Of a stretch of 64,000 nt of DNA, positions 2,539 through 39,535 are shown piece by piece. Every line of letters starts with the position of its first letter. Within the stretch, counting starts at the first letter, position 1. The position numbers and the translations under genes are program-made. The notes beneath the pieces were generated by a model. The model did not search any database. It was not told the DNA's origin and saw nothing but the letters and a program-made list of their open reading frames with translations. The DNA lies in the sequence record OR525701.1; one strand, 5' to 3'. The DNA is from Escherichia phage vB-Eco-KMB38.

Positions 2539-4864
<2,326 letters not shown>

Positions 4865-4891: not shown

Positions 4892-6874
4892 ATGGCACTT
4901 CTCTCTCCGGGCGTTGAGCTCAAAGAAACTACCGTACAGAGTACTGTAGTTAATAACTCCACTGGTACTGCTGCCCTGGCTGGAAAATTCCAATGGGGAC
5001 CTGCATTCCAGATTAAACAAATCACCGATGAAGTTGCGTTGGTTGATATGTTTGGTACTCCTAATACGGATACAGCAGATTATTTCATGTCTGCTATGAA
5101 CTTCCTTCAATATGGTAACGACCTTCGTGTTGTACGCGCAGTCGATCGTGATACTGCTAAGAACTCATCTCCTGTGGCAGGAAACATTAATTTTACTATT
5201 TCTTCGGCTGGCACCAACTATAGAGTCGGTGATAAAGTTGTAGTTAAATATTCTACAGATATTATCGAACCAGACGGTGAAGTTACTTCGGTTGATTCTG
5301 ACGGTAAAATTTTGAATATCTTTATTCCTTCAGGTAAAATTATCGCTAAAGCGAAAGAAATCGGCGAATATCCTGAATTAGGTTCAAACTGGACTGCCGA
5401 AATGTCTGGGTCTTCTTCTGGTCTGTCTGCAGTAATTACTATTGATTCTGTTGTAATGGATTCTGGTATTCTGTTGACTGAAGTTGAAACTTCAGAAGAA
5501 GCTATTACTTCTCTAACTTTCCAAGAATCTATTAAAAAATACGGTGTCCCGGGTGTAGTTGCTCTTTATCCTGGTGAACTTGGCGACCAGCTCGAAATTG
5601 AAATCGTATCTAAAGCAGACTATGACAAAGGTGCTTCGGCCCAGTTAAAAATTTATCCTGATGGTGGTACTCGTGCATCTACTGCTAAAGCAATCTTTGG
5701 GTATGGCCCGCAAACTGATGACCAATATGCAATTATCGTTCGTCGCAACGACGCGGTAGTCCAGAGCGTAGTTCTTTCTACTAAACGTGGTGAACGCGAT
5801 ATTTATGGTAGCAATATCTTCATTGATGATTTCTTTGCTAAAGGCGCAAGCAATTATATTTTCGCTACGGCACAAGGTTGGCCAAAAGGTTTCTCTGGCG
5901 TAATCAAACTGAATGGTGGCTTATCATCTAATGAAACGGTTGAAGCCGGTGATTTAATGGAAGCTTGGGATTTGTTTGCTGACCGTGAATCGGTTAATGC
6001 ACAGTTGTTTATTGCTGGTTCTTGTGCTGGTGAATCTTTAGAAGTTGCTTCTACAGTTCAGAAACATGTTGTAGCAATTGGTGATTCTCGTCAAGATTGC
6101 TTGGTTCTTTGCTCACCGCCACGTGCAACTATAGTCGGTATTCCTGTTAATCGTGCAGTTGATAATCTGGTTGATTGGCGTACAGCGTCAGGAACTTACA
6201 CTGATAATAACTTTAATATAAGTTCTACTTATGCTGCTATTGATGGTAACTATAAATATCAATATGACAAATATAACGATGTGAATCGTTGGGTTCCATT
6301 AGCTGCTGATATCGCCGGTCTTTGTGCTCGAACAGACAATATTTCTCAGCCTTGGATGTCTCCAGCCGGTTATAACCGTGGACAAATTCTTAACGTTATT
6401 AAGCTTGCAATTGAAACTCGTCAAGCACAGCGTGATCGTTTGTATCAAGAAGCTATTAACCCTGTTACTGGTACCGGTGGTGATGGATATGTTCTGTACG
6501 GTGATAAAACTGCCACTTCTGTTCCTTCGCCATTTGACCGTATTAACGTACGTCGTTTGTTTAACATGGTTAAAACGAACATTGGTTCAGCATCCAAATA
6601 TCGCCTATTTGAATTGAACAACGCATTTACCCGTTCGTCTTTCCGTACAGAGACTTCTCAATATCTACAGGGTATTAAAGCTCTCGGTGGTGTATATAAC
6701 TTTAAAGTTGTTTGTGATACTACCAATAACACCCCAGCAGTTATCGACCGTAATGAATTTGTAGCTACTTTCTACTTACAACCTGCCCGCTCGATAAATT
6801 ATATTACGTTGAACTTTGTAGCAACAGCAACTGGCGCTGATTTCGACGAACTGATTGGTGCTGTAGGTGGCTAA
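4892..6874 (+). CDS. 18: tail sheath protein gp18
   Basis: 660 aa, preceded by TATAAATA late promoter; size and synteny match T4 gp18. Confidence 0.93.
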   Translation: MALLSPGVELKETTVQSTVVNNSTGTAALAGKFQWGPAFQIKQITDEVALVDMFGTPNTDTADYFMSAMNFLQYGNDLRVVRAVDRDTAKNSSPVAGNINFTISSAGTNYRVGDKVVVKYSTDIIEPDGEVTSVDSDGKILNIFIPSGKIIAKAKEIGEYPELGSNWTAEMSGSSSGLSAVITIDSVVMDSGILLTEVETSEEAITSLTFQESIKKYGVPGVVALYPGELGDQLEIEIVSKADYDKGASAQLKIYPDGGTRASTAKAIFGYGPQTDDQYAIIVRRNDAVVQSVVLSTKRGERDIYGSNIFIDDFFAKGASNYIFATAQGWPKGFSGVIKLNGGLSSNETVEAGDLMEAWDLFADRESVNAQLFIAGSCAGESLEVASTVQKHVVAIGDSRQDCLVLCSPPRATIVGIPVNRAVDNLVDWRTASGTYTDNNFNISSTYAAIDGNYKYQYDKYNDVNRWVPLAADIAGLCARTDNISQPWMSPAGYNRGQILNVIKLAIETRQAQRDRLYQEAINPVTGTGGDGYVLYGDKTATSVPSPFDRINVRRLFNMVKTNIGSASKYRLFELNNAFTRSSFRTETSQYLQGIKALGGVYNFKVVCDTTNNTPAVIDRNEFVATFYLQPARSINYITLNFVATATGADFDELIGAVGG

Positions 6875-29285: not shown

Positions 29286-29315
29286 ATAGTATCACACATC
29301 CATGTGTTTGTAAAC
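29286..29315 (-). promoter_or_regulatory. early promoter
   Basis: Minus strand GTTTACaaacacatggatgtgtgaTACTAT followed by the conserved leader caacaacatgaggaaaa and ATG. Confidence 0.65.
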
Positions 29316-31402
29316 TATCCTTGGAAAAATTTAAACGGAACTGATTCTAAATCCATTAAAGATGCTAACAATTCCAAACCTTTAGGTGCACTAGTTTTTT
29401 CTACAAATGAGGAGAACGATACCAGCTCATCAGATTCGATTTCACCCGTCATAGCGACCACCTCGCCTGTTTCCATGAGAACATCACCATCGTAAATGAC
29501 AGCTTCATCTAACTGGTCTGAAGACATGACTTCAGCTTGAATAAATTTAAGGTTGGATTCTAAACCTGCACCAGTGTCAGATGACGCATCTGTAATTTTA
29601 TTTATCTGCAAGAGAATGCCTCTAGGCAAAATAATTTCTTGCTCATTAGGGTGATTACTCAACTGTCCTGGATAAATCACGTTAACTTTATGGGCGCCAT
29701 CAATAGCCCATCCAACGTTAACACGGATTTGTTCTGGCGCATGCATAGCTGTTCTTACTTGACTAGGAGAAATAGTAACACCTTCGTCATTATTGTCAAT
29801 GTTAAGCTCTTTGCGAACTTCTTCAGGAGCAAGTCCAAGGGCAACGTTCTCTTTAAACCCACCGAAAATAATAGGAGCTAGTGAAGTGGAAACATAGTTT
29901 CTGAAGTAGAATACCTTATTTTTAACCATTGCTTCGTAAATAGGCATTCTGATAGACTGAGCTCTATATAACGTTAGACCTTCAGGTAAACGATCTCCAT
30001 TTAAAAACGCCGAATCAAGACCATCAATAGCGCGTTTAACTTCATCTTCATCTGCAACATCGTAAAAATCTGGTTTATAACGACCTAACAACATATTATT
30101 GATATCTGTATATGCAGAAGAGGCATATTCACGAATAGCTCGTTTTTCAGCAACAGAGTATTGTTTAGGGTCACGATTCATTGTTATATTAAAGGTGCCT
30201 CTAGCTGATTCTCGTGCATAAGTATACATCACATTAGACAAGAACGCTGATTTACGTTGTTTCCAAGTTCTTTCAGATACTTCAGCTAAAACGTCGTCAG
30301 GCAGTTGGAAATTATCACGTCTAAAATCTTCAAACCATTCGTCTTTAATAGAGTCTGCAATTTCATTTGCAGCTTCAACAAAAGCAGCTAATGCTTTAAC
30401 AGATGTTGTTTTTTCGGTTTTAATTTTCTTAGCAAACTTTTCTAAAGTCGGCTTAATAACACTACCATAAGAAACTTCATCGGCAAATTTAAAGGATTCA
30501 TCAATACGATTATAAATCTTATTTTCGATATCAGCAACTAAAGTGCCTTTTGCTGTGGACGATGCTTGGGCTAGTACGATTTCATATGCTTCAGGAAGTA
30601 ATTCGGCTGTAGCCGGGCCACTAACTTCTTTAGCAGAATTTTCGTATTTCTGGAATAACTCACCTTCTTGACGGTCAGCTTCTAAAGATTGACTTGCTGC
30701 AATAGCACGACGAGAAATTTTAGTGCGAGCAATAACAGGCTTATCTTTACGTTTTTCTTCTACCGCGGCAATAGAACCAGCGATAGCCGTTTCTTTGGTG
30801 ACCTTTTCACCGGTCTTTTTACTCACATAAACTTCGCCAACATCAGAATCTACTTTCGTGTACAACTCTGTGTTAATGTTAGGGATGCCTTTAATATCTT
30901 CAATGTTGGCATTTTTACGAACCATCATCACATAGGTGTGTTTACCTGTGAATTGATACATTGCCGACAATACTTTAAAACGACCACCGGTTTTAGTAGA
31001 AACTAAACGAGCAAGAAGAGTTTGAAGCTGCTGTCCACGTCCTTTCAATTTCTTGGTAGGGAATCTGAACAGAACCGCATCCATACGAAGAGCTTTAACC
31101 TGTTCATATACTGTATTGAAAATGGTGTTGATTGCATCAATAGGAGCAGGACCAAGGCCGTTTTTCAATTCAGCGAGATTACCCTTTTCAGACAGACTCA
31201 TAATAACAACATGGGCATATTTGTCGCCAAGTTTAACTTGTTTTACAGCATCGCCTTCAGAAAGGTAAGAGAATAAGCGAACTACGATGTTTGTATCGAT
31301 ATCACCAATTTTCCAGACTTGTGGAACTTTAGCTTTAGGGTTCAAATTGACGACAGGAAGACTGCCTTCAGATTCAAACACTTCATTTAATTGTTCAGAC
31401 AT
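29315..31402 (-). CDS. alt: Alt ADP-ribosyltransferase (packaged, modifies host RNA polymerase)
   Basis: 695 aa; resembles T4 Alt as recalled (e.g. ...VFYFRNYVSTSL...); synteny next to gene 30. Confidence 0.88.
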   Translation of the reverse strand: MSEQLNEVFESEGSLPVVNLNPKAKVPQVWKIGDIDTNIVVRLFSYLSEGDAVKQVKLGDKYAHVVIMSLSEKGNLAELKNGLGPAPIDAINTIFNTVYEQVKALRMDAVLFRFPTKKLKGRGQQLQTLLARLVSTKTGGRFKVLSAMYQFTGKHTYVMMVRKNANIEDIKGIPNINTELYTKVDSDVGEVYVSKKTGEKVTKETAIAGSIAAVEEKRKDKPVIARTKISRRAIAASQSLEADRQEGELFQKYENSAKEVSGPATAELLPEAYEIVLAQASSTAKGTLVADIENKIYNRIDESFKFADEVSYGSVIKPTLEKFAKKIKTEKTTSVKALAAFVEAANEIADSIKDEWFEDFRRDNFQLPDDVLAEVSERTWKQRKSAFLSNVMYTYARESARGTFNITMNRDPKQYSVAEKRAIREYASSAYTDINNMLLGRYKPDFYDVADEDEVKRAIDGLDSAFLNGDRLPEGLTLYRAQSIRMPIYEAMVKNKVFYFRNYVSTSLAPIIFGGFKENVALGLAPEEVRKELNIDNNDEGVTISPSQVRTAMHAPEQIRVNVGWAIDGAHKVNVIYPGQLSNHPNEQEIILPRGILLQINKITDASSDTGAGLESNLKFIQAEVMSSDQLDEAVIYDGDVLMETGEVVAMTGEIESDELVSFSSFVEKTSAPKGLELLASLMDLESVPFKFFQG

Positions 31403-31646: not shown

Positions 31647-33139
31647 TATAAACCTGTCTGGGACCACGGTCCAAATACATCTTCAAACGAATCCGCTTCT
31701 GTTTTATCAAAACGGAACCCTTTAATAATTGGAAGGAAAATACCTACAGTACCTTCACGGCCTTTAGAATGAACCCAACCATTACATTCACAATCAGCGA
31801 TACGTCCAATTAATTTACCTTCACGAGCTTCGGCCATTAATCGTTCACGGTCTAAATCATGACGCTCGTCTAAAGGAATAAGAACCTTTACACCGTCAAC
31901 TGTTTTATGAGTTGTATCTTTAAAACCTGAACCACAATCGGTTGTAATACGACGACAACGTGATACGAGTTCGACACCACCTAATTTGTTAGGGACTTTA
32001 GAGTGTTCATAGTATCCTACAACTTCTAAAGCGATATCAATAACTTCTTTAAATTTAATTAAATTCTTAGAGCGTTTGTTTTCCCAATATGAATCACGGT
32101 TTTTAAGGATAATACCTTCAAGACCTTGGTCAACATATTTTTTATAAACCACTTTAGCTTCGTCAAGATTACGAACTAACTGATTTTCAATTGGCTCAAT
32201 TCGCTTAAAGCCTTCAGCCATATTTTCAAGAGCAGCAAAACGAACATCGTATTTCTGACCTTTAATTTTGCCGTCAGAATAGACTTCATCTAAAGGAACA
32301 TAGTCCCAGGCTTGAAGAACCATACCTTCCGCTTCTTTAGGAGAAATAGTCCCTTGAAGAGATTTATTTGCTAAACCGTTTGAAGTGCTACGGTCTGCAA
32401 CTTGTACTTCTTCGGATTCTTCATTATCACCAAATAAGAACGACAGGTCATTTCCTGAGCTCACAGCCTTTTTAATATCAAATGAATGATAAACTAATTC
32501 ACCGTCGATTAAAACCCCATTAGGGTGTCTTTCACGAGCTTCTTTAGTCATTTCCATTAGTTCATCCGCTAATAGAGTAAGACCGTGGTATTCGTTACCG
32601 GCACGAGAAAAGAATTGAACACCATCATCGCGAACTTCAGCGAAACAACGAGCACCATCGGCTTTTAATTGAGCAAATGCGGGCCATTTAATATTTTTAG
32701 TAATCAATTTCTCGTCATATGCAGATGCTAACATCTGTGGCTGCAATTGAATAAGTCCAGGCCACACCTTATTCGCGATAGACACTGAAGCACCTACTTC
32801 AAGGTCGCGCATCATTACACGACGAAGGACTTCTACATCATCAGGTTTACCATCAGCGATATAACCCATGAGCTCTTTAATTGCCGCATTACCGGTGAGT
32901 TTACGAGTGGCTAATGTGAACTCAATAAAATCCAACATGTCATCTAATTCAAGAAGACCATATGCTTGAGACCTTTCACCTGGTCCTGGCCATTTCTTAA
33001 TATAATACTGGATACCACGTGCATATGTTAAACGATACACACGTTCAAGTAATTTGTTGTCCTTATTTTTCTTAAGGATTTCTTGTTTTGTTTTAGTAGA
33101 ACCGATCGCAGCTATTTGGTTTAAAATATCTAAAATCAT
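31646..33139 (-). CDS. 30: ATP-dependent DNA ligase gp30
   Basis: 497 aa; MILDILNQIAAIGSTK..., motif KADGARC; closely matches T4 DNA ligase as recalled. Confidence 0.95.
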   Translation of the reverse strand: MILDILNQIAAIGSTKTKQEILKKNKDNKLLERVYRLTYARGIQYYIKKWPGPGERSQAYGLLELDDMLDFIEFTLATRKLTGNAAIKELMGYIADGKPDDVEVLRRVMMRDLEVGASVSIANKVWPGLIQLQPQMLASAYDEKLITKNIKWPAFAQLKADGARCFAEVRDDGVQFFSRAGNEYHGLTLLADELMEMTKEARERHPNGVLIDGELVYHSFDIKKAVSSGNDLSFLFGDNEESEEVQVADRSTSNGLANKSLQGTISPKEAEGMVLQAWDYVPLDEVYSDGKIKGQKYDVRFAALENMAEGFKRIEPIENQLVRNLDEAKVVYKKYVDQGLEGIILKNRDSYWENKRSKNLIKFKEVIDIALEVVGYYEHSKVPNKLGGVELVSRCRRITTDCGSGFKDTTHKTVDGVKVLIPLDERHDLDRERLMAEAREGKLIGRIADCECNGWVHSKGREGTVGIFLPIIKGFRFDKTEADSFEDVFGPWSQTGL

Positions 33140-33405
33140 TTGATGTCCTCGATTTTGGTTACGGTTCTATTATAAGCCACTTCATCTAGAAGCGATTTCA
33201 GCGTTTTCTGATAAGTGGTAATCCGTTTACCGAGTCCTTCAACGTAGTATTCTGAAATGTAGATGAACCCTTGTTCAACACACTCTTTAAATATTTCTGC
33301 GTCTTTTACTGAACGAAACAATGGCCAGTCTCGAAAGAACATGTTAACGTGACCGTAGTCACGCGTTGTGTTTTTACCATCTGTAATATCATGAACTACA
33401 AACAT
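33136..33405 (-). CDS. hypothetical protein (30.1-like)
   Basis: 89-aa ORF coupled to the ligase gene. Confidence 0.6.
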   Translation of the reverse strand: MFVVHDITDGKNTTRDYGHVNMFFRDWPLFRSVKDAEIFKECVEQGFIYISEYYVEGLGKRITTYQKTLKSLLDEVAYNRTVTKIEDIK

Positions 33406-33414
33406 AAGTATCCC

Positions 33415-34230
33415 TTAACAATTTATAGACCAAGTCCATTTAGACGAATCTAAAGGAAAGTTTTGAATCGTCCACCATGGCCGCATATCAGTTGGTCCTG
33501 GGGTTCGCCAGGTATACGGATTCGACGGACCACCAATTTGATTAGGCCATGCACCTGGACTTGTTGCACCAGATTCTTTAAGCAAATCCGCCAATCGTTT
33601 TAAAAGGTCTTCACGATCTGAATCTGAATTATGCTCGGGTGGAACCAAACGAGATTCAATATCATCCCACGTGTGTACACGTTGTGCAGTGCGAGGAATA
33701 TCATCACGTTCACCACGAGCCAACCAATAAATCGGTACATTAAGAATTTCTGCCGCATGGTCACAATGATGAGCTAAATCGTCAATGTAACAAATCACGT
33801 TATATTTTGTTTTAGCTAGTTCGAATAATTGTTCCTTTGAAGAATCATGACCACACATCATTACTTCAGAGAAAGCGCCAGGGAACAAAGCGTTCAAATT
33901 AAATTGTCTATTCAATCGAGCATCAATTGAATCACCTAGCGCCGTCACGGCTACAAAATTATAGTCTTCTTTTAGTTTATTGATAACTCGAAGAGCATCC
34001 GAATAAGGCGCTAAGTAACGAATAAAATCAGAGCGATTATATTTTTCTATTAATTGTTTACCGAGGTTATCATCGGTATTGAATAGTTTACCAGGAGAAA
34101 TAAATTTTTCGTCCTGAATCATTTTTAAAATATGTTCTAATGGAAGATTATATTTTTGGGCAAAATAAGGAAGTCCAGATTGCCAGCTTAAACATACACC
34201 ATCAATATCAGTCAAAATAGTAGGCTTCAT
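33415..34230 (-). CDS. HAD-superfamily phosphatase-like protein (30.2-like)
   Basis: 271 aa; N-terminal motif ILTDIDGV (HAD motif I, DxDG). Confidence 0.7.
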   Translation of the reverse strand: MKPTILTDIDGVCLSWQSGLPYFAQKYNLPLEHILKMIQDEKFISPGKLFNTDDNLGKQLIEKYNRSDFIRYLAPYSDALRVINKLKEDYNFVAVTALGDSIDARLNRQFNLNALFPGAFSEVMMCGHDSSKEQLFELAKTKYNVICYIDDLAHHCDHAAEILNVPIYWLARGERDDIPRTAQRVHTWDDIESRLVPPEHNSDSDREDLLKRLADLLKESGATSPGAWPNQIGGPSNPYTWRTPGPTDMRPWWTIQNFPLDSSKWTWSINC

Positions 34231-34694
34231 AAAGAGTCTCTTAATAGGTTTAACACATCAATAAATTCAGCTTCGGTTAATATTGTATCATCTTTTGTTA
34301 GGTGGCTGGCCATGCTGTGCTTCAAAATTTTTCCTTTCGAAGCCTGTAATGCATCACGAAACCCCTTGTTTTGGATCGCTGCTTCAAAATATGCATTTGT
34401 GTATAATTCTTTCCACGCTTCAGAGTATCTTGAAAATGGAACTCCTAACCAGAAGAGAGTCCCATGGTCCTGAGCTCTTGCATAAGACCTTCCTGCTTGC
34501 TGTGCAGCCAATCCAGACAACCCAAATATACGTCTTTGTTGTTCAACATTTTTCACCTTACATCCTTGGAGAAATCCTTCAAGACCTCCGAATTGAATAC
34601 CATCCATAACAAAAGGCCATTGAGCAAAGTTACTTAATGCACATGACGGCCATCTAAAATTGCTTCTAATCTCTAACTCAGACATCTTTAACAC
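34227..34694 (-). CDS. NADAR-family protein (YbiA/DUF1768-like; 30.3-like)
   Basis: 155 aa; motifs LSNFAQWPF...DG and EGFLQGCK parallel E. coli YbiA FSNFAAWPI and EHYFQAQK. Confidence 0.7.
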   Translation of the reverse strand: MLKMSELEIRSNFRWPSCALSNFAQWPFVMDGIQFGGLEGFLQGCKVKNVEQQRRIFGLSGLAAQQAGRSYARAQDHGTLFWLGVPFSRYSEAWKELYTNAYFEAAIQNKGFRDALQASKGKILKHSMASHLTKDDTILTEAEFIDVLNLLRDSL

Positions 34695-34890
34695 TTATAA
34701 TTTCAACATCAGCCCAATGTCCATAAGCCGGTAGACGGTCTTCAATAGATAAACCACCGTCATTTTTAAGCATTTTAATTGTCTTGATATATGGTTCATC
34801 TTGTGGATGAATAGGCGAGCAGTCAGTCACACGATAAGTAACTTCGACCATTTCTGTACCTAACAATTTCTGAATTAATTTCTTTAACAT
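34678..34890 (-). CDS. hypothetical protein
   Basis: 70-aa ORF with GAGGA RBS. Confidence 0.55.
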   Translation of the reverse strand: MLKKLIQKLLGTEMVEVTYRVTDCSPIHPQDEPYIKTIKMLKNDGGLSIEDRLPAYGHWADVEIISVKDV

Positions 34891-34891
34891 A

Positions 34892-35086
34892 TTATCCTCG
34901 CTTTAAAGATTTGATTACAGACAGTTCACCACCCATGCGAACGTCTTCAGTTCCATCGACCCATAGGACGGTGTAGGCTTCTTTAATAGTAGAATTACCT
35001 AATTTAAAAGCAGGTAAAACCTTTGAAATCATACCAGGAATACCTATACCTTTTAACTGAACGGTTTGTGATAAGAATAGTTGCAT
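34892..35086 (-). CDS. hypothetical protein
   Basis: 64-aa ORF with GAGG RBS. Confidence 0.5.
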   Translation of the reverse strand: MQLFLSQTVQLKGIGIPGMISKVLPAFKLGNSTIKEAYTVLWVDGTEDVRMGGELSVIKSLKRG

Positions 35087-35373
35087 TAGAACCTCATCTG
35101 AAAGCCGTGCGATTTAACATTACCGCCATAAATGTCAGAGGTATTGACTTCACGTGCGGCGCTAGGGTCGATGTTAATATCATGGCTGAGCTTAGTGATT
35201 GCTAAGGTATCACGACCGTTAACAGTACGGAATTCTACCGGGCACACGACATCAGCATAAGCCTTAATGGATTCACGAGTAGGTTGTTTGTCGACAGGAA
35301 CGTCTTTACCCGCTTTAGAGAAAACAACTTCACAGAAATTTTTACGAGTATCAAAATAAGTGGTCATAAACAT
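35086..35373 (-). CDS. hypothetical protein
   Basis: 96 aa from ATG (MFMTTYF...) behind GAGGAAAA; track ORF is extended through the upstream hairpin. Confidence 0.55.
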   Translation of the reverse strand: MFMTTYFDTRKNFCEVVFSKAGKDVPVDKQPTRESIKAYADVVCPVEFRTVNGRDTLAITKLSHDINIDPSAAREVNTSDIYGGNVKSHGFQMRF

Positions 35374-35414
35374 AATATTTTCCTCAAAGGAGGCCGAAGC
35401 CTCCATTTTTAAGA

Positions 35415-35780
35415 TTAGATATCAAATTCGTTAAGAACTACATCAAAGATTGCTTCGAGATGTTCAGGTTTAGCTCGGTTACTCAGGATATGACGAATCC
35501 AAGTTTTAACCAGAAGTTTACGATTAACACCATTCCAGCAAGGATGAGTACCTAAATCACGCTGACGGAAATCATCATCTAATGCAATTTTAAAATTTGA
35601 ACCTTCCATCGTGATTGAAACCGTGATACCATTTTCAAATCGCATATAAACGTAATTAGGAGTCATGCACTGTTCGATTTCACAAACTGTACCGTTTTCG
35701 TGTTTCCATAAGCAAATAACTTCAGAAGAACCAGCAATACCGTTAGAAACATATTTGCGTTCGAAGTTGATGTAGTTCAT
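35415..35780 (-). CDS. hypothetical protein
   Basis: 121 aa; GGAGA RBS; own early promoter. Confidence 0.6.
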   Translation of the reverse strand: MNYINFERKYVSNGIAGSSEVICLWKHENGTVCEIEQCMTPNYVYMRFENGITVSITMEGSNFKIALDDDFRQRDLGTHPCWNGVNRKLLVKTWIRHILSNRAKPEHLEAIFDVVLNEFDI

Positions 35781-36533: not shown

Positions 36534-36844
36534 TATAAATTCTCTTTAAATGAAAATGCAGGACTTATTGACATTGCCTGCGCAAGCCCTCAAGGGGAAC
36601 ATAGGTTTTGAATATTTACCGACAGGATAACCATAAACCCGTCATCATACTTATAACTCTTATCTGTTGCACACCGTTAGCTTAAAGGTTCCGGGTTCGA
36701 TTTCTCGAGGATAAGATATATACTGATGGATATATAGGCCTTGAGGCGTACTCCCGATCGGCCATCACCTCGGGGTAGCATGCACTTGCCGCTATAAGAA
36801 TAACATTCAAGAGGTACACCGTAAAAATTGCCGGGGCGATACTT

Positions 36845-36871
36845 CAAAAACATATCGATTCGTAAATCGAT
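36845..36871 (-). terminator. terminator after rIII
   Basis: Minus strand atcgatttacgaatcgat hairpin followed by atgTTTTT. Confidence 0.6.
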
Positions 36872-36900
36872 AATCAGACAATTTCGACGGCTCCTCGATT

Positions 36901-37961: not shown

Positions 37962-38543
37962 TTATTCACCACAAAAGTTTCGGATTTGTTCCCAATTCAG
38001 AGAACGAAGATTATTACGAGAGTACTGAATTACTTCAATACCAGCTTGTTTTAGAATGTCGGCCCAATTTTCAGGAGATCTGTCATATAATTCTGCGTAT
38101 ACAACCTTTTTAATACCTGACTGCGTGATAGCTTTAGTGCAATCAGGGCATGGAGAAAGCGTAGTATATAACGTAGCACCTTCAATAGAATTACCTTTAC
38201 GAGCTGCAAACAAAATTGCATTCAGTTCCGCATGGATTTCGTTATTAGCAGACCATGCACTATGAGCGGCCCGATGTTCTTTAGCCAAAACAAAATTATC
38301 TGCCCGTCCAAATGCTGTAGTGCCTTCTTTATGTCCAGCAACGATGACTGGGATTGGTTTATTCTTCAACCAACCATTTTCAGATGCATGTTCACAACAG
38401 TTAACACCGCCTGAAGGAGAGCCATTATATCCAGTAGAGATAATGCGTCCATCTTTTTCAATGACGGCACCAACTTTCCATGAACAACATTTTGATTCTT
38501 GAGAAATCAAATAAGCAATTTGAAGATATGTGCTAGCTTTCAT
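37962..38543 (-). CDS. cd: dCMP deaminase
   Basis: 193 aa; zinc-binding motifs CCEHA and PCPDC; same length as T4 Cd. Confidence 0.92.
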   Translation of the reverse strand: MKASTYLQIAYLISQESKCCSWKVGAVIEKDGRIISTGYNGSPSGGVNCCEHASENGWLKNKPIPVIVAGHKEGTTAFGRADNFVLAKEHRAAHSAWSANNEIHAELNAILFAARKGNSIEGATLYTTLSPCPDCTKAITQSGIKKVVYAELYDRSPENWADILKQAGIEVIQYSRNNLRSLNWEQIRNFCGE

Positions 38544-39535
38544 TATTGAACCTTATTAATATAAGTTAACAGCTCTTTAGTTTGTTCCCAACTGATGCAC
38601 GCATCGGTAATGGAAACGCCATATGACATATTATCAGAAATTTTTTGATTTCCTTCATGTAGGAATGATTCTATCATAATTCCTTTGACCAAATCATTAG
38701 CTGCTAAATTTTTACCAATACCAATTTGATTACTATAATGCCCATCAGCGTTTGCATGGCTACAGTCAACCATTACATAATGATTCAGACCTACTGCCCT
38801 TGCTTTGTTAGAAGCTTCTTGAATATCAGAAGAATGATAGTTCGGGCCGTTGGTCCCGCCACGCAATACGATATGCGTATTCTGATTACCTTCAGCTTCA
38901 ACAATGCCTACAGTACCATCGACGTCCATACCCATATACCGATGAGGCCAGGAGGCACTATACATCGCGTCTGTAGCTACTTTAATAGAACCATTGGTTG
39001 CGTTCTTGAAGCCTACGCACATCGGTAGACCTGAAGCAATTTCACGATGTGTCTGACTTTCAGTCGTACGGGCGCCAATAGCAACCCATGAGAAAATACC
39101 AGAAAGATACTTAATCGTGAATGGGTCCAATACTTCAGTTGCTAATGGAAGTCCCATACGTAGAAGTTTACGACACAATGTTCGTGCAACTATAAGACCG
39201 TGGTTCATATCAAAACTTCCGTCAAGATATGGATCATTTACAAGACCTTTCCAACCTACGGTAGTTCGAGGCTTTTCAAAATAAACGCGCATCACTAACA
39301 GAACATTAGGAAGACGAGTTTGAAGTTCAGCCAGACGTTTGCCGTATTCAACAGCAGCAATAGGGTCATGAATTGAACAAGGACCTACAACAATAAGTTT
39401 GCGTGGGTCTTCACCGTTCATAATCGAATTAACTTGTTCGCGATGAGAAGCCACTTGTGATGCGTAAGCTTCCGACAAAGGAATAATCTCAGCCAGTTCT
39501 TTTGGAGAAATAAGTTTTCCGACGATAGGTAACAT
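38543..39535 (-). CDS. 3-deoxy-D-arabino-heptulosonate-7-phosphate (DAHP) synthase, AroG/AroF class I-like
   Basis: 330 aa; aligns along its length with E. coli AroG as recalled: GPCSIHD, KPRTTVGWKGL, GARTTESQ, DCSHAN, ESFLHEGNQ, SITDACISWE; TAAGGA RBS; stop overlaps the cd start. Confidence 0.85.
   Translation of the reverse strand: MLPIVGKLISPKELAEIIPLSEAYASQVASHREQVNSIMNGEDPRKLIVVGPCSIHDPIAAVEYGKRLAELQTRLPNVLLVMRVYFEKPRTTVGWKGLVNDPYLDGSFDMNHGLIVARTLCRKLLRMGLPLATEVLDPFTIKYLSGIFSWVAIGARTTESQTHREIASGLPMCVGFKNATNGSIKVATDAMYSASWPHRYMGMDVDGTVGIVEAEGNQNTHIVLRGGTNGPNYHSSDIQEASNKARAVGLNHYVMVDCSHANADGHYSNQIGIGKNLAANDLVKGIMIESFLHEGNQKISDNMSYGVSITDACISWEQTKELLTYINKVQ

Follow-up and report, generated by a model that had tools for sequence, protein, structure and literature searches.

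A 155-codon open reading frame in a T4-like coliphage genome raises two questions: whether its product removes ADP-ribose from phage DNA as a means of counter-defence, and whether the genes around it take part in this activity. The window, that is, the whole stretch of 64,000 nucleotides of Escherichia phage vB-Eco-KMB38 that was analyzed (sequence record OR525701.1), had previously been interpreted from its letters and open reading frames. This sequence-only reading assigned the product to the NADAR family and associated it with a neighboring HAD-like phosphatase and with the ADP-ribosyltransferase Alt. We find that the gene is almost certainly the orthologue of adfN (T4 gene 30.3) in a Mosigvirus-type T4-like coliphage, encoding a bare NADAR core of 152 residues, and that neither the HAD protein nor Alt has a supported functional link to it.

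Gene and start codon

The frame runs on the minus strand from a GTG at 34694 to the stop codon at 34227. The features of the locus are:

34227..34685, minus strand: adfN (T4 gene 30.3 orthologue), predicted orphan NADAR-family DNA ADP-ribosylglycohydrolase, 152 aa
34686..34694, minus strand: extra codons GTG-TTA-AAG, where the sequence-only reading began; probably outside the AdfN coding sequence, on the T4 and Bas47 annotations and the E36/K43 numbering
34678..34890, minus strand: gene 30.4, upstream, 70 aa, PHROG 2042; its TGA stop and the adfN ATG share an overlap of 8 nt (ATGTCTGA)
33415..34230, minus strand: gene 30.2, downstream, 271 aa; HAD-superfamily hydrolase domain and tail (motifs, AF2 model and Foldseek)

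The region 33000-35500 is 100% identical at the DNA level to Escherichia phage AlbertHofmann (Bas47) and to phage PTK, both T4-like and Mosigvirus-type. In T4 and in Bas47 the annotated start is the in-frame ATG at 34685, which gives a 152-residue protein. Numbering from this ATG places the published catalytic residues E36 and K43 on the EGFLQGCK motif, whereas numbering from the GTG does not. Since the annotations and the residue numbering both fit the ATG, the GTG start is probably three codons too long, and adfN most likely starts at ATG 34685. The proposed 34227-34694 frame is genuine, but its GTG start and 155-residue length probably give way to the shorter version. A chance reading frame is contradicted by the match to the Pfam family PF08010 (Phage_30_3; E=2.7e-69 and 231.7 bits, the cut-off being 36), which begins at AdfN residue 11 and covers profile positions 1-138 of 138, and by the presence of a homologue in 1510 phage records, 730 of which carry a T4-type allele (identity of at least 60%). 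Compared with T4 30.3, 32 of the 152 codons differ synonymously and five non-synonymously. The internal ORF 30.3' annotated in T4 is not conserved in the adfN gene of the window.

Family and active site

The protein belongs to the gp30.3/AdfN(T4) subfamily of the NADAR superfamily, an assignment traced to de Souza & Aravind as that work is cited in PMC11543638 and PMC11125620. PF08010, the family profile, the homologues and the structure model all agree with the NADAR call. The route to canonical NADAR proteins is, however, indirect. Used alone, the window AdfN matched neither PF08719 (NADAR) nor any NCBIfam model, nor any PDB sequence at E≤10. PF08719 was matched by 21 of the 57 family members (best E=1.5e-7), and the gp30.3 family profile matched Escherichia coli YbiA (2B3W; E=0.0047), the sole PDB sequence that it reaches, exactly across the two motifs quoted in the sequence-only reading. 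At the sequence level, the link from AdfN to canonical NADAR/YbiA is therefore transitive only, via homologues and the family profile. The profile check against NADAR/DUF1768 proposed earlier succeeds through PF08010 and these 21 homologues, but not directly. Taken literally it would mislead by giving a false negative, because the window protein misses the PF08719 profile, and since single-sequence searches gave nothing useful, the assignment needed both the family profile and the structure model. The AF2 model of AdfN (pLDDT 92.8) has the NADAR fold, an alpha-helical core with small flanking sheets, and Foldseek returned NADAR structures only, with YbiA as the best match (E=1.1e-4, TMq 0.70).

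Both quoted motifs are present, and the active-site features are:

34611..34637, minus strand: LSNFAQWPF, NADAR N-terminal motif, residues 17-25 (invariance in homologues and YbiA alignment)
34557..34580, minus strand: EGFLQGCK, residues 36-43, with the catalytic Glu36 and the phosphate-binding Lys43 (conservation, YbiA alignment and T4 mutants)
34317..34319, minus strand: His123, third active-site position, invariant in 58 homologues and following the last beta-strand of the model (E120-122)
34233..34274, minus strand: C-terminal alpha-helix, residues 138-151 (model helix H138-151 and DNA alignment)

The first motif aligns with FSNFAAWPI of YbiA, and residues A16-L17-S18-N19-F20 and F25 are invariant in the 58 homologues. 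Across the 58 sequences, E36, G37, F38 and Q40 of the second motif never vary, and K43 is kept in at least 90%; E36 and K43 align with E48 and K55 of YbiA. Equivalent Glu/Lys pairs are E43/K50 in PnNADAR, E88/K95 in the E. coli C7 protein and E36/K43 in T4 (PMC11825919, PMC11543638), and the substitutions E36A and K43A weaken T4 AdfN (PMC11825919). At the third active-site position, YbiA-type proteins have Glu and DarG1-type proteins Asp, and phage gp30.3 NADARs have His (PMC11125620, PMC11543638).

AdfN aligns with T4 gp30.3 along its full 152 residues without a gap, at 97% identity. The five substitutions between the window and T4 (H74R, E89P, I120V, M125I and H128G) leave the conserved catalytic positions untouched. 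In the DNA alignment the C-terminus of the window gene is intact as in T4, and the RB69-type frameshift is absent.

Probable role against DarTG1, and the neighboring genes

The earlier suggestion that the protein removes ADP-ribose from guanine in DNA, and thereby counteracts host defence, has been demonstrated for the 97%-identical T4 AdfN (PMC11825919, PMC11125620). AdfN(T4) strips ADP-ribose from DarT1-modified DNA in vitro (PMC11825919), and gp30.3 is necessary and sufficient for DarTG1 resistance (PMC11825919, PMC11125620). T4 and T2 become sensitive to DarTG1 when adfN is deleted, and RB69 is rescued when the gene is expressed ectopically (PMC11825919). When T4 transposon insertions were screened on DarTG1, 30.3 had a log2FC of -7.25 (adjusted p 0), and the gene was dispensable on hosts without DarTG1 (10.1101/2025.11.20.689424). 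Thymine, offered earlier as a second possible substrate, has to be dropped: T4 gp30.3 hydrolyses G-ADPr and leaves T-ADPr intact (PMC11125620). A DarTG2 host would consequently show nothing, as thymine-ADPr is not a substrate of AdfN.

Judged by its sequence, the window allele would do the same as T4 AdfN, including conferring DarTG1 resistance. In an infected DarTG1 host, the DarT1 toxin would ADP-ribosylate guanine of the phage DNA and block replication. AdfN would bind the ADP-ribose, with Glu36 directed to the distal ribose, Lys43 to the phosphates and His123 at the third catalytic position, and would hydrolyse the N-glycosidic bond to guanine, leaving unmodified DNA on which replication could resume. 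The enzyme would act as a phage-made, orphan DarG1-like antitoxin that leaves thymine-ADPr, the product of DarT2, untouched. Phages Bas35-Bas47 are all DarTG1-resistant, and Bas47 has an inactive, RB69-like AdfA (PMC11825919). Because this closest relative carries an inactive AdfA allele, the window phage is predicted to be DarTG1-resistant through adfN alone.

The function of AdfN is already published biology, its enzymology dating from 2024 and its counter-defence role from 2025, and the window gene adds no new biology to it. What follows concerns annotation: the 'hypothetical protein' can be given a name in the window phage and in most of the 1510 homologue-bearing records, AdfN being appropriate for the ~730 T4-type alleles and gp30.3-family NADAR for the remoter homologues.

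T4 AdfN neither rescues uninfected cells from DarT1 toxicity nor replaces DarG1 in them (PMC11125620), and it rescues non-T-even phages only weakly (PMC11825919). From these two limits it follows that the in vivo mechanism is incomplete, and that a T-even factor or context is required.

A broader nucleic-acid activity, in which AdfN would also de-ADP-ribosylate guanine of RNA (tRNA or mRNA) modified by other host ART defences, is unlikely to be part of its role. All NADAR families, that of T4 phage included, reportedly take ADP-ribose off guanine in both RNA and DNA (PMC12945103). In four distant phages, a gp30.3 homologue also lies inside or beside a tRNA gene cluster. However, accessory genes of T4-like phages generally accumulate in the tRNA regions, and the position of these homologues is therefore weak evidence. 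DarTG1 is the only conditional phenotype known, and no in vivo RNA phenotype was reported.

AdfN as a DNA enzyme directed at DarTG1 remains our preferred reading. The gene lies within a tightly packed, same-strand block from 30.7 to 30. Promoter scanning (19 sites versus 19.7 in shuffled controls) and terminator scanning (3 versus 4.9) were both uninformative, with no more sites than in shuffled sequences; from 30.7 to gene 30 the minus strand had no terminator-like site. Gene packing and overlaps suggest that the block is co-transcribed. No Shine–Dalgarno-like sequence was found ahead of the adfN ATG. Because the TGA of 30.4 overlaps this ATG by 8 nt, translation of adfN is probably coupled to that of the upstream gene.

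The only genes with significant effects in the T4 DarTG1 screen were 30.3 and 30.4 (log2FC -1.79, adjusted p 0.014, for the latter), and insertions further upstream, in 30.6 and 30.7, were neutral (10.1101/2025.11.20.689424). The 30.4 effect can be explained by polarity alone, given that 30.4 overlaps adfN and that adfN has no Shine–Dalgarno sequence of its own. We consider it quite improbable that gp30.4 is, beyond a coupling leader, the T-even factor on which the full activity of AdfN(T4) depends. It occurs in 721 phage records, close to the 730 of T4-type AdfN, and was not found accompanying distant gp30.3 homologues. Two further observations speak against such a role: T4 and the window phage share only 45.6% identity in gp30.4, compared with 97% in AdfN, and T4 AdfN is fully functional in RB69, a phage whose gp30.4 is closer to that of the window than to that of T4.

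Downstream, the identification of 33415-34230 as HAD-like holds, with all four HAD motifs in the sequence and a HAD fold in the model. In gp30.2 the HAD domain spans residues 1 to ~195 and is followed by a disordered, hypervariable Trp/Pro-rich tail. Across 54 sequences, residues D8, D10, G11 and K132 are invariant, and T96, D150 and D151 each show conservation of 90% or more. The AF2 model has a pLDDT of 85, with at least 88 in every 10-residue block across residues 1-200. Foldseek gave 102 PDB matches at E≤0.001, and the best 50 of these 102 are all HAD-family or HAD-scaffold structures. The best target-normalised TM-scores were obtained for the 5'(3')-deoxyribonucleotidase-like 3BWV, 4MUM and 4YIH (TMt 0.65-0.69). 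Sequence similarity to 5'(3')-deoxyribonucleotidase is weak (E 0.4-0.75), and the match to Pfam HAD_2 (E=0.028) falls under the cut-off. The protein is predicted to be an active HAD enzyme with a Rossmann-like core and a cap.

It could be supposed that AdfN and gp30.2, perhaps together with Alt, form an ADP-ribose processing module in which the HAD enzyme dephosphorylates the product, or that gp30.2 is itself the T-even factor that potentiates AdfN. The 30.2 ATG overlaps the adfN stop (ATGA) in both the window and T4, gp30.2 is predicted to be active and deoxyribonucleotidase-like, and AdfN(T4) does require a further T-even factor. Nevertheless, this is very improbable. T4 insertions in 30.2 were neutral on DarTG1 (71 sites, log2FC -0.12, p 0.61; 10.1101/2025.11.20.689424), and most of the distant relatives examined lack the adjacency of the two genes, a pairing that is not kept beyond the gene 30-31 block of some T4-like phages. 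In profile searches of 12 distant loci, gp30.2 was near gp30.3 at only two outside the T-even group: directly next to it in an Acinetobacter phage and a short distance away in a Klebsiella phage. No gp30.2 homologue was found within 4 kb of gp30.3 in Aeromonas 44RR2.8t, Salmonella Melville, Vibrio D484, Escherichia E26, Ralstonia RSP15 or Yersinia phiR1-RT, and two large phage-like contigs from metagenomes had none within 6 kb. We therefore rejected gp30.2 as an obligate partner of AdfN.

Alt fares no better. The earlier reading placed it about 3 kb away, and a 695-aa ORF (29315-31402) with an ADP-ribosyltransferase domain (PF03496, E=6.5e-28), called Alt in Bas47, is indeed separated from the 3' end of adfN by 2.8 kb. 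However, T4 alt insertions were neutral on DarTG1 (log2FC -0.01; 10.1101/2025.11.20.689424), and Alt was rejected as a member of the same system as AdfN. Its chemistry also differs, since Alt ADP-ribosylates proteins.

Finally, a YbiA-like metabolic N-glycosidase, removing reactive intermediates of the riboflavin pathway or other small-molecule ribosides rather than acting in DNA repair or counter-defence, is scarcely credible: YbiA is the top structural match and the one PDB sequence within reach of the family profile, and NADARs do serve purposes other than G-ADPr removal, riboflavin synthesis among them (PMC12945103), but the last-strand Glu that defines YbiA is replaced by an invariant His, and the T4 orthologue acts on ADP-ribosylated DNA, has a strong and specific DarTG1 phenotype and is dispensable where the host lacks DarTG1.

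Comparison with known systems

T4 AdfN, the anti-DarT factor NADAR described by Johannesman et al. 2025 (PMC11825919), shares with the window protein its start, E36/K43/H123 and the intact C-terminal helix, and the T4 gene order 30.4, 30.3, 30.2, 30.1, 30 is that of the window. T4 is, however, a Tequatrovirus, whereas the genome of the window phage is that of a Mosigvirus close to RB69 and Bas47, and the neighbors have drifted much further from their T4 counterparts than AdfN has (gp30.4, 45.6% by tblastn; gp30.2, 71% by BLASTP). RB69 belongs to the phage lineage closest to the window and has gp30.3 at the same locus, but as a truncated, poorly active allele. One extra T leads to a premature TGA and the loss of the last helix; in the DNA alignment it occurs in RB69 only and is absent from the window. 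The truncation correlated with DarTG1 sensitivity, and the C-terminal helix is needed for full activity (PMC11825919).

Identity to AdfN is lower, at 14-20%, for E. coli YbiA (2B3W) and for the NADAR of P. nicotianae (8BAU), each of which carries Glu as the third catalytic residue. YbiA functions in metabolism, and removal of cytidine-ADPr is a further activity of the YbiA and NADAR families, one not attributed to the phage NADAR (PMC12945103). DarG1, the DarT1-linked NADAR (BC4488 type; G. lovleyi 8BAT and E. coli C7), differs in that the window AdfN is an orphan with no adjacent DarT1, has no N-terminal extension and carries His123 in place of Asp. Its flanking genes, 30.4 and 30.2, encode no ART domain, the nearest being that of Alt, 2.8 kb away. 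For these reasons, the window AdfN was rejected as the DarG1 of a DarTG1 operon. [quoted passage not shown]

The adfN locus

The open reading frame that an earlier, sequence-only reading had claimed at 34227-34694 is real, with its start corrected by three codons. An in-frame ATG at 34685 lies three codons inside the GTG-started frame and is the annotated start of both T4 gene 30.3 (NP_049816, 459 nt) and bas47_0037 of Escherichia phage AlbertHofmann/Bas47 (459 nt); only from this ATG do the published catalytic residues E36 and K43 land on EGFLQGCK. As these annotations and the residue numbering favour ATG 34685, we place adfN (gene 30.3, encoding AdfN or gp30.3) at 34227-34685. Both motifs quoted in that reading are present, and the ADP-ribosyltransferase gene alt, said to lie about 3 kb away, is 2.8 kb from adfN.

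Features of the adfN region
GTG 34694 to TGA 34227, minus strand: reading frame as first proposed, 155 codons
34227-34685, minus strand: adfN, 152 aa, ATG start
34611-34637, minus strand: LSNFAQWPF motif (translation)
34557-34580, minus strand: EGFLQGCK motif (translation)
34678-34890, minus strand: gene 30.4, upstream of adfN; its TGA stop overlaps the adfN ATG by 8 nt (ATGTCTGA)
33415-34230, minus strand: gene 30.2, downstream of adfN; its ATG overlaps the 30.3 stop (ATGA)
29315-31402: Alt, 695-aa ORF, from PF03496 and the Bas47 annotation

Genes 30.7 to 30 all lie close together on one strand, either overlapping or separated by a few bases; a scan between them found no terminator-like site on that strand, and a consensus promoter scan gave no excess over shuffled controls. 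From this packing, the proposed co-transcription of adfN with the HAD gene 30.2, and with the ligase gene, is plausible as a prediction. No Shine-Dalgarno-like sequence was found before the 30.3 ATG, and from this and the 8-nt overlap we infer that adfN translation is coupled to 30.4. T4 is also annotated with an internal out-of-frame ORF, 30.3' (75 aa; NC_000866 128402-128629), the counterpart of which occupies 34322-34549 on the minus strand, in the +1 frame within adfN. This frame is interrupted by a stop after 34 codons in the window and in RB69, which makes it unlikely that 30.3' is a genuine gene.

Phage PTK (MW512264) and Bas47 (MZ501047, genus Mosigvirus) both match the segment 33000-35500 at 100% identity; in the flanks, identity to PTK is 99.4-99.8%, and on the right-hand side that to Bas47 is 99.1%. 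Gene order in the window matches the T4 alt-30-31-cd region. At the T4 cd.1/cd.2 position, adjoining the dCMP deaminase gene, lies an auxiliary metabolic gene for the entry step of the shikimate pathway (38543-39535, minus strand); its 330-aa product belongs to the DAHP synthase family (PF00793, E=1e-74) and is annotated as 'putative aldolase' in Bas47. In the ~370 bases between 30.9 and rIII (36534-36900), Bas47 has no annotated gene and the window shows just short ORFs.

Family assignment of AdfN

AdfN matched Pfam PF08010 (Phage_30_3) across the whole profile (E=2.7e-69) and PHROG 652. The NADAR profile itself, PF08719, was not matched by the single sequence, nor were NCBIfam or PDB sequences; the link to it was made transitively, through 21 of 57 family members (best E=1.5e-7). 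A search of a large protein collection yielded 103 homologues, down to ~35% identity, some carrying the JGI label YbiA/DUF1768. P13, A16-L17-S18-N19-F20, F25, E36-G37-F38, Q40, H123 and T134-x-L136-T137 are invariant in a 58-sequence alignment, and K43 almost so. The family profile matched E. coli YbiA (2B3W; E=0.0047), aligning LSNF with FSNF and E36/Q40/K43 with E48/Q52/K55. An AlphaFold2 model built from the homologue alignment (pLDDT 92.8, pTM 0.88) had as its sole credible Foldseek matches in the PDB YbiA, a Phytophthora NADAR with ADP-ribose (8BAU) and a Geobacter DarG1-type NADAR (8BAT). Since sequence, conserved catalytic residues and predicted fold agree, the NADAR assignment proposed from the motifs stands. 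H123, at the third catalytic position, is the His described in the literature as characteristic of phage (gp30.3) NADARs, whereas the YbiA type has Glu and the DarG1 type Asp there.

Family members were also found on two very large phage-like metagenomic contigs (308 kb, ENA, and 82 kb; each at 6001-6468, 38-39% identity), indicating that the family reaches well past Straboviridae; their neighbours are many family-less ORFs, with Thg1-like, NUDIX and PRPP-synthetase genes among them. In four distant phages the homologue lies in or beside a tRNA gene cluster, away from the ligase gene.

NADAR homologues at tRNA gene clusters (coordinates of the examined locus)
4001-4450: Aeromonas 44RR2.8t.2
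4004-4447: Salmonella Melville
3995-4513: Ralstonia RSP15
~4001-4453: Yersinia phiR1-RT (annotated too short, 4136-4453; ORF and profile match start near 4001)

This position may be a mere accessory-gene hot spot; the T4 phage NADAR is reported to act on G-ADPr in RNA as well (PMC12945103).

Anti-DarTG1 activity and the neighbouring genes

T-even resistance to DarTG1, a defence whose toxin DarT1 ADP-ribosylates guanine in phage DNA, was mapped to gene 30.3, renamed adfN (Johannesman et al., Nat Commun 2025, PMC11825919). Upon its deletion T4 and T2 no longer plaqued on DarTG1 cells, E36A and K43A weakened T4 AdfN, and the purified enzyme stripped ADP-ribose from DarT1-modified DNA; DarTG2 was not countered (PMC11825919). 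Independently, T4 gp30.3 hydrolysed guanosine-ADPr and not thymidine-ADPr in vitro (PMC11125620). Every NADAR tested, T4 phage NADAR included, hydrolysed G-ADPr, and a summary table lists the removal of C-ADPr for the NADAR and YbiA families but not for phage NADAR (PMC12945103).

In uninfected cells T4 AdfN fails to neutralise DarT1, and it is of little help to T5 or Bas25 (PMC11125620, PMC11825919); DNA modification was ruled out as the cause, and a T-even factor was proposed (PMC11825919). In a T4 transposon screen on DarTG1 only two genes were significant, 30.3 (log2FC -7.25, adjusted p 0) and, more weakly, 30.4 (log2FC -1.79, adjusted p 0.014), with insertions in 30.6 and 30.7 neutral (10.1101/2025.11.20.689424). 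The simplest reading of the 30.4 depletion is polarity via translational coupling to adfN. That gp30.4 is itself functional, as a candidate for the T-even factor needed by AdfN, seems quite improbable: it occurs in 721 phage records, similar to the 730 with a T4-type AdfN allele (at least 60% identity), but no homologue was found beside distant gp30.3 genes, and the low identity of its T4 and window versions, 45.6% where AdfN has 97%, disfavours a specific partnership.

For gp30.2 (271 aa), the label HAD phosphatase is a reasonable prediction. Of its motif residues, D8, D10, G11 and K132 do not vary among 54 homologues from many T4-like phages, in which T96, D150 and D151 are at least 90% conserved. 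The structure model is confident across residues 1-200, and the best 50 of its 102 Foldseek matches in the PDB (E<=0.001) are all HAD-family or HAD-scaffold; the best target-normalised scores among these 50, and a weak sequence match, point to 5'(3')-deoxyribonucleotidase-like proteins. The C-terminal ~70 residues (33415-33630) are Trp/Pro-rich (e.g. PYTWRTPGPTDMRPWWTIQNFPLDSSKWTWSINC), predicted to be disordered (pLDDT <50) and hypervariable, wholly different among related phages, whereas the HAD domain is conserved.

At twelve more distant loci examined for linkage, a gp30.2 homologue adjoins gp30.3 in an Acinetobacter phage and is close by in a Klebsiella phage; none was found within 4 kb in Aeromonas 44RR2.8t, Salmonella Melville, Vibrio D484, Escherichia E26, Ralstonia RSP15 or Yersinia phiR1-RT, or within 6 kb in the two metagenomic contigs. 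T4 insertions in 30.2 (71 sites, log2FC -0.12) and alt (log2FC -0.01) were neutral on DarTG1 (10.1101/2025.11.20.689424). A functional unit of AdfN with gp30.2 or Alt is not supported, given the patchy linkage of gp30.2 and the neutral insertions in both genes; the adjacency is local synteny, and it is by coincidence that the genes behind the suggested richness in ADP-ribose biochemistry map close together.

The allele of this phage and its relatives

AdfN is 97% identical to T4 gp30.3 (147/152 residues, gap-free), and the codon differences from T4, 32 synonymous and 5 non-synonymous, show purifying selection. The main proposal of the sequence-only reading, a NADAR that undoes guanine ADP-ribosylation, is supported: the activity was demonstrated experimentally for this orthologue and would apply here, as would the counter-defence role, given the resistance of Bas47, sequence-identical over this region. 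adfN is thus a counter-defence gene already known. Bas35-Bas47 were all DarTG1-resistant when tested, and Bas46 and Bas47 carry an inactive RB69-like allele (R164) of AdfA (PMC11825919); it is therefore presumably AdfN that counters DarTG1 in this lineage. In contrast, RB69, the closest classical relative, is DarTG1-sensitive, which is attributed to the truncation of its gp30.3 by one extra T, seen in the alignment and absent from adfN of the window; expression of adfN restored RB69 (PMC11825919).
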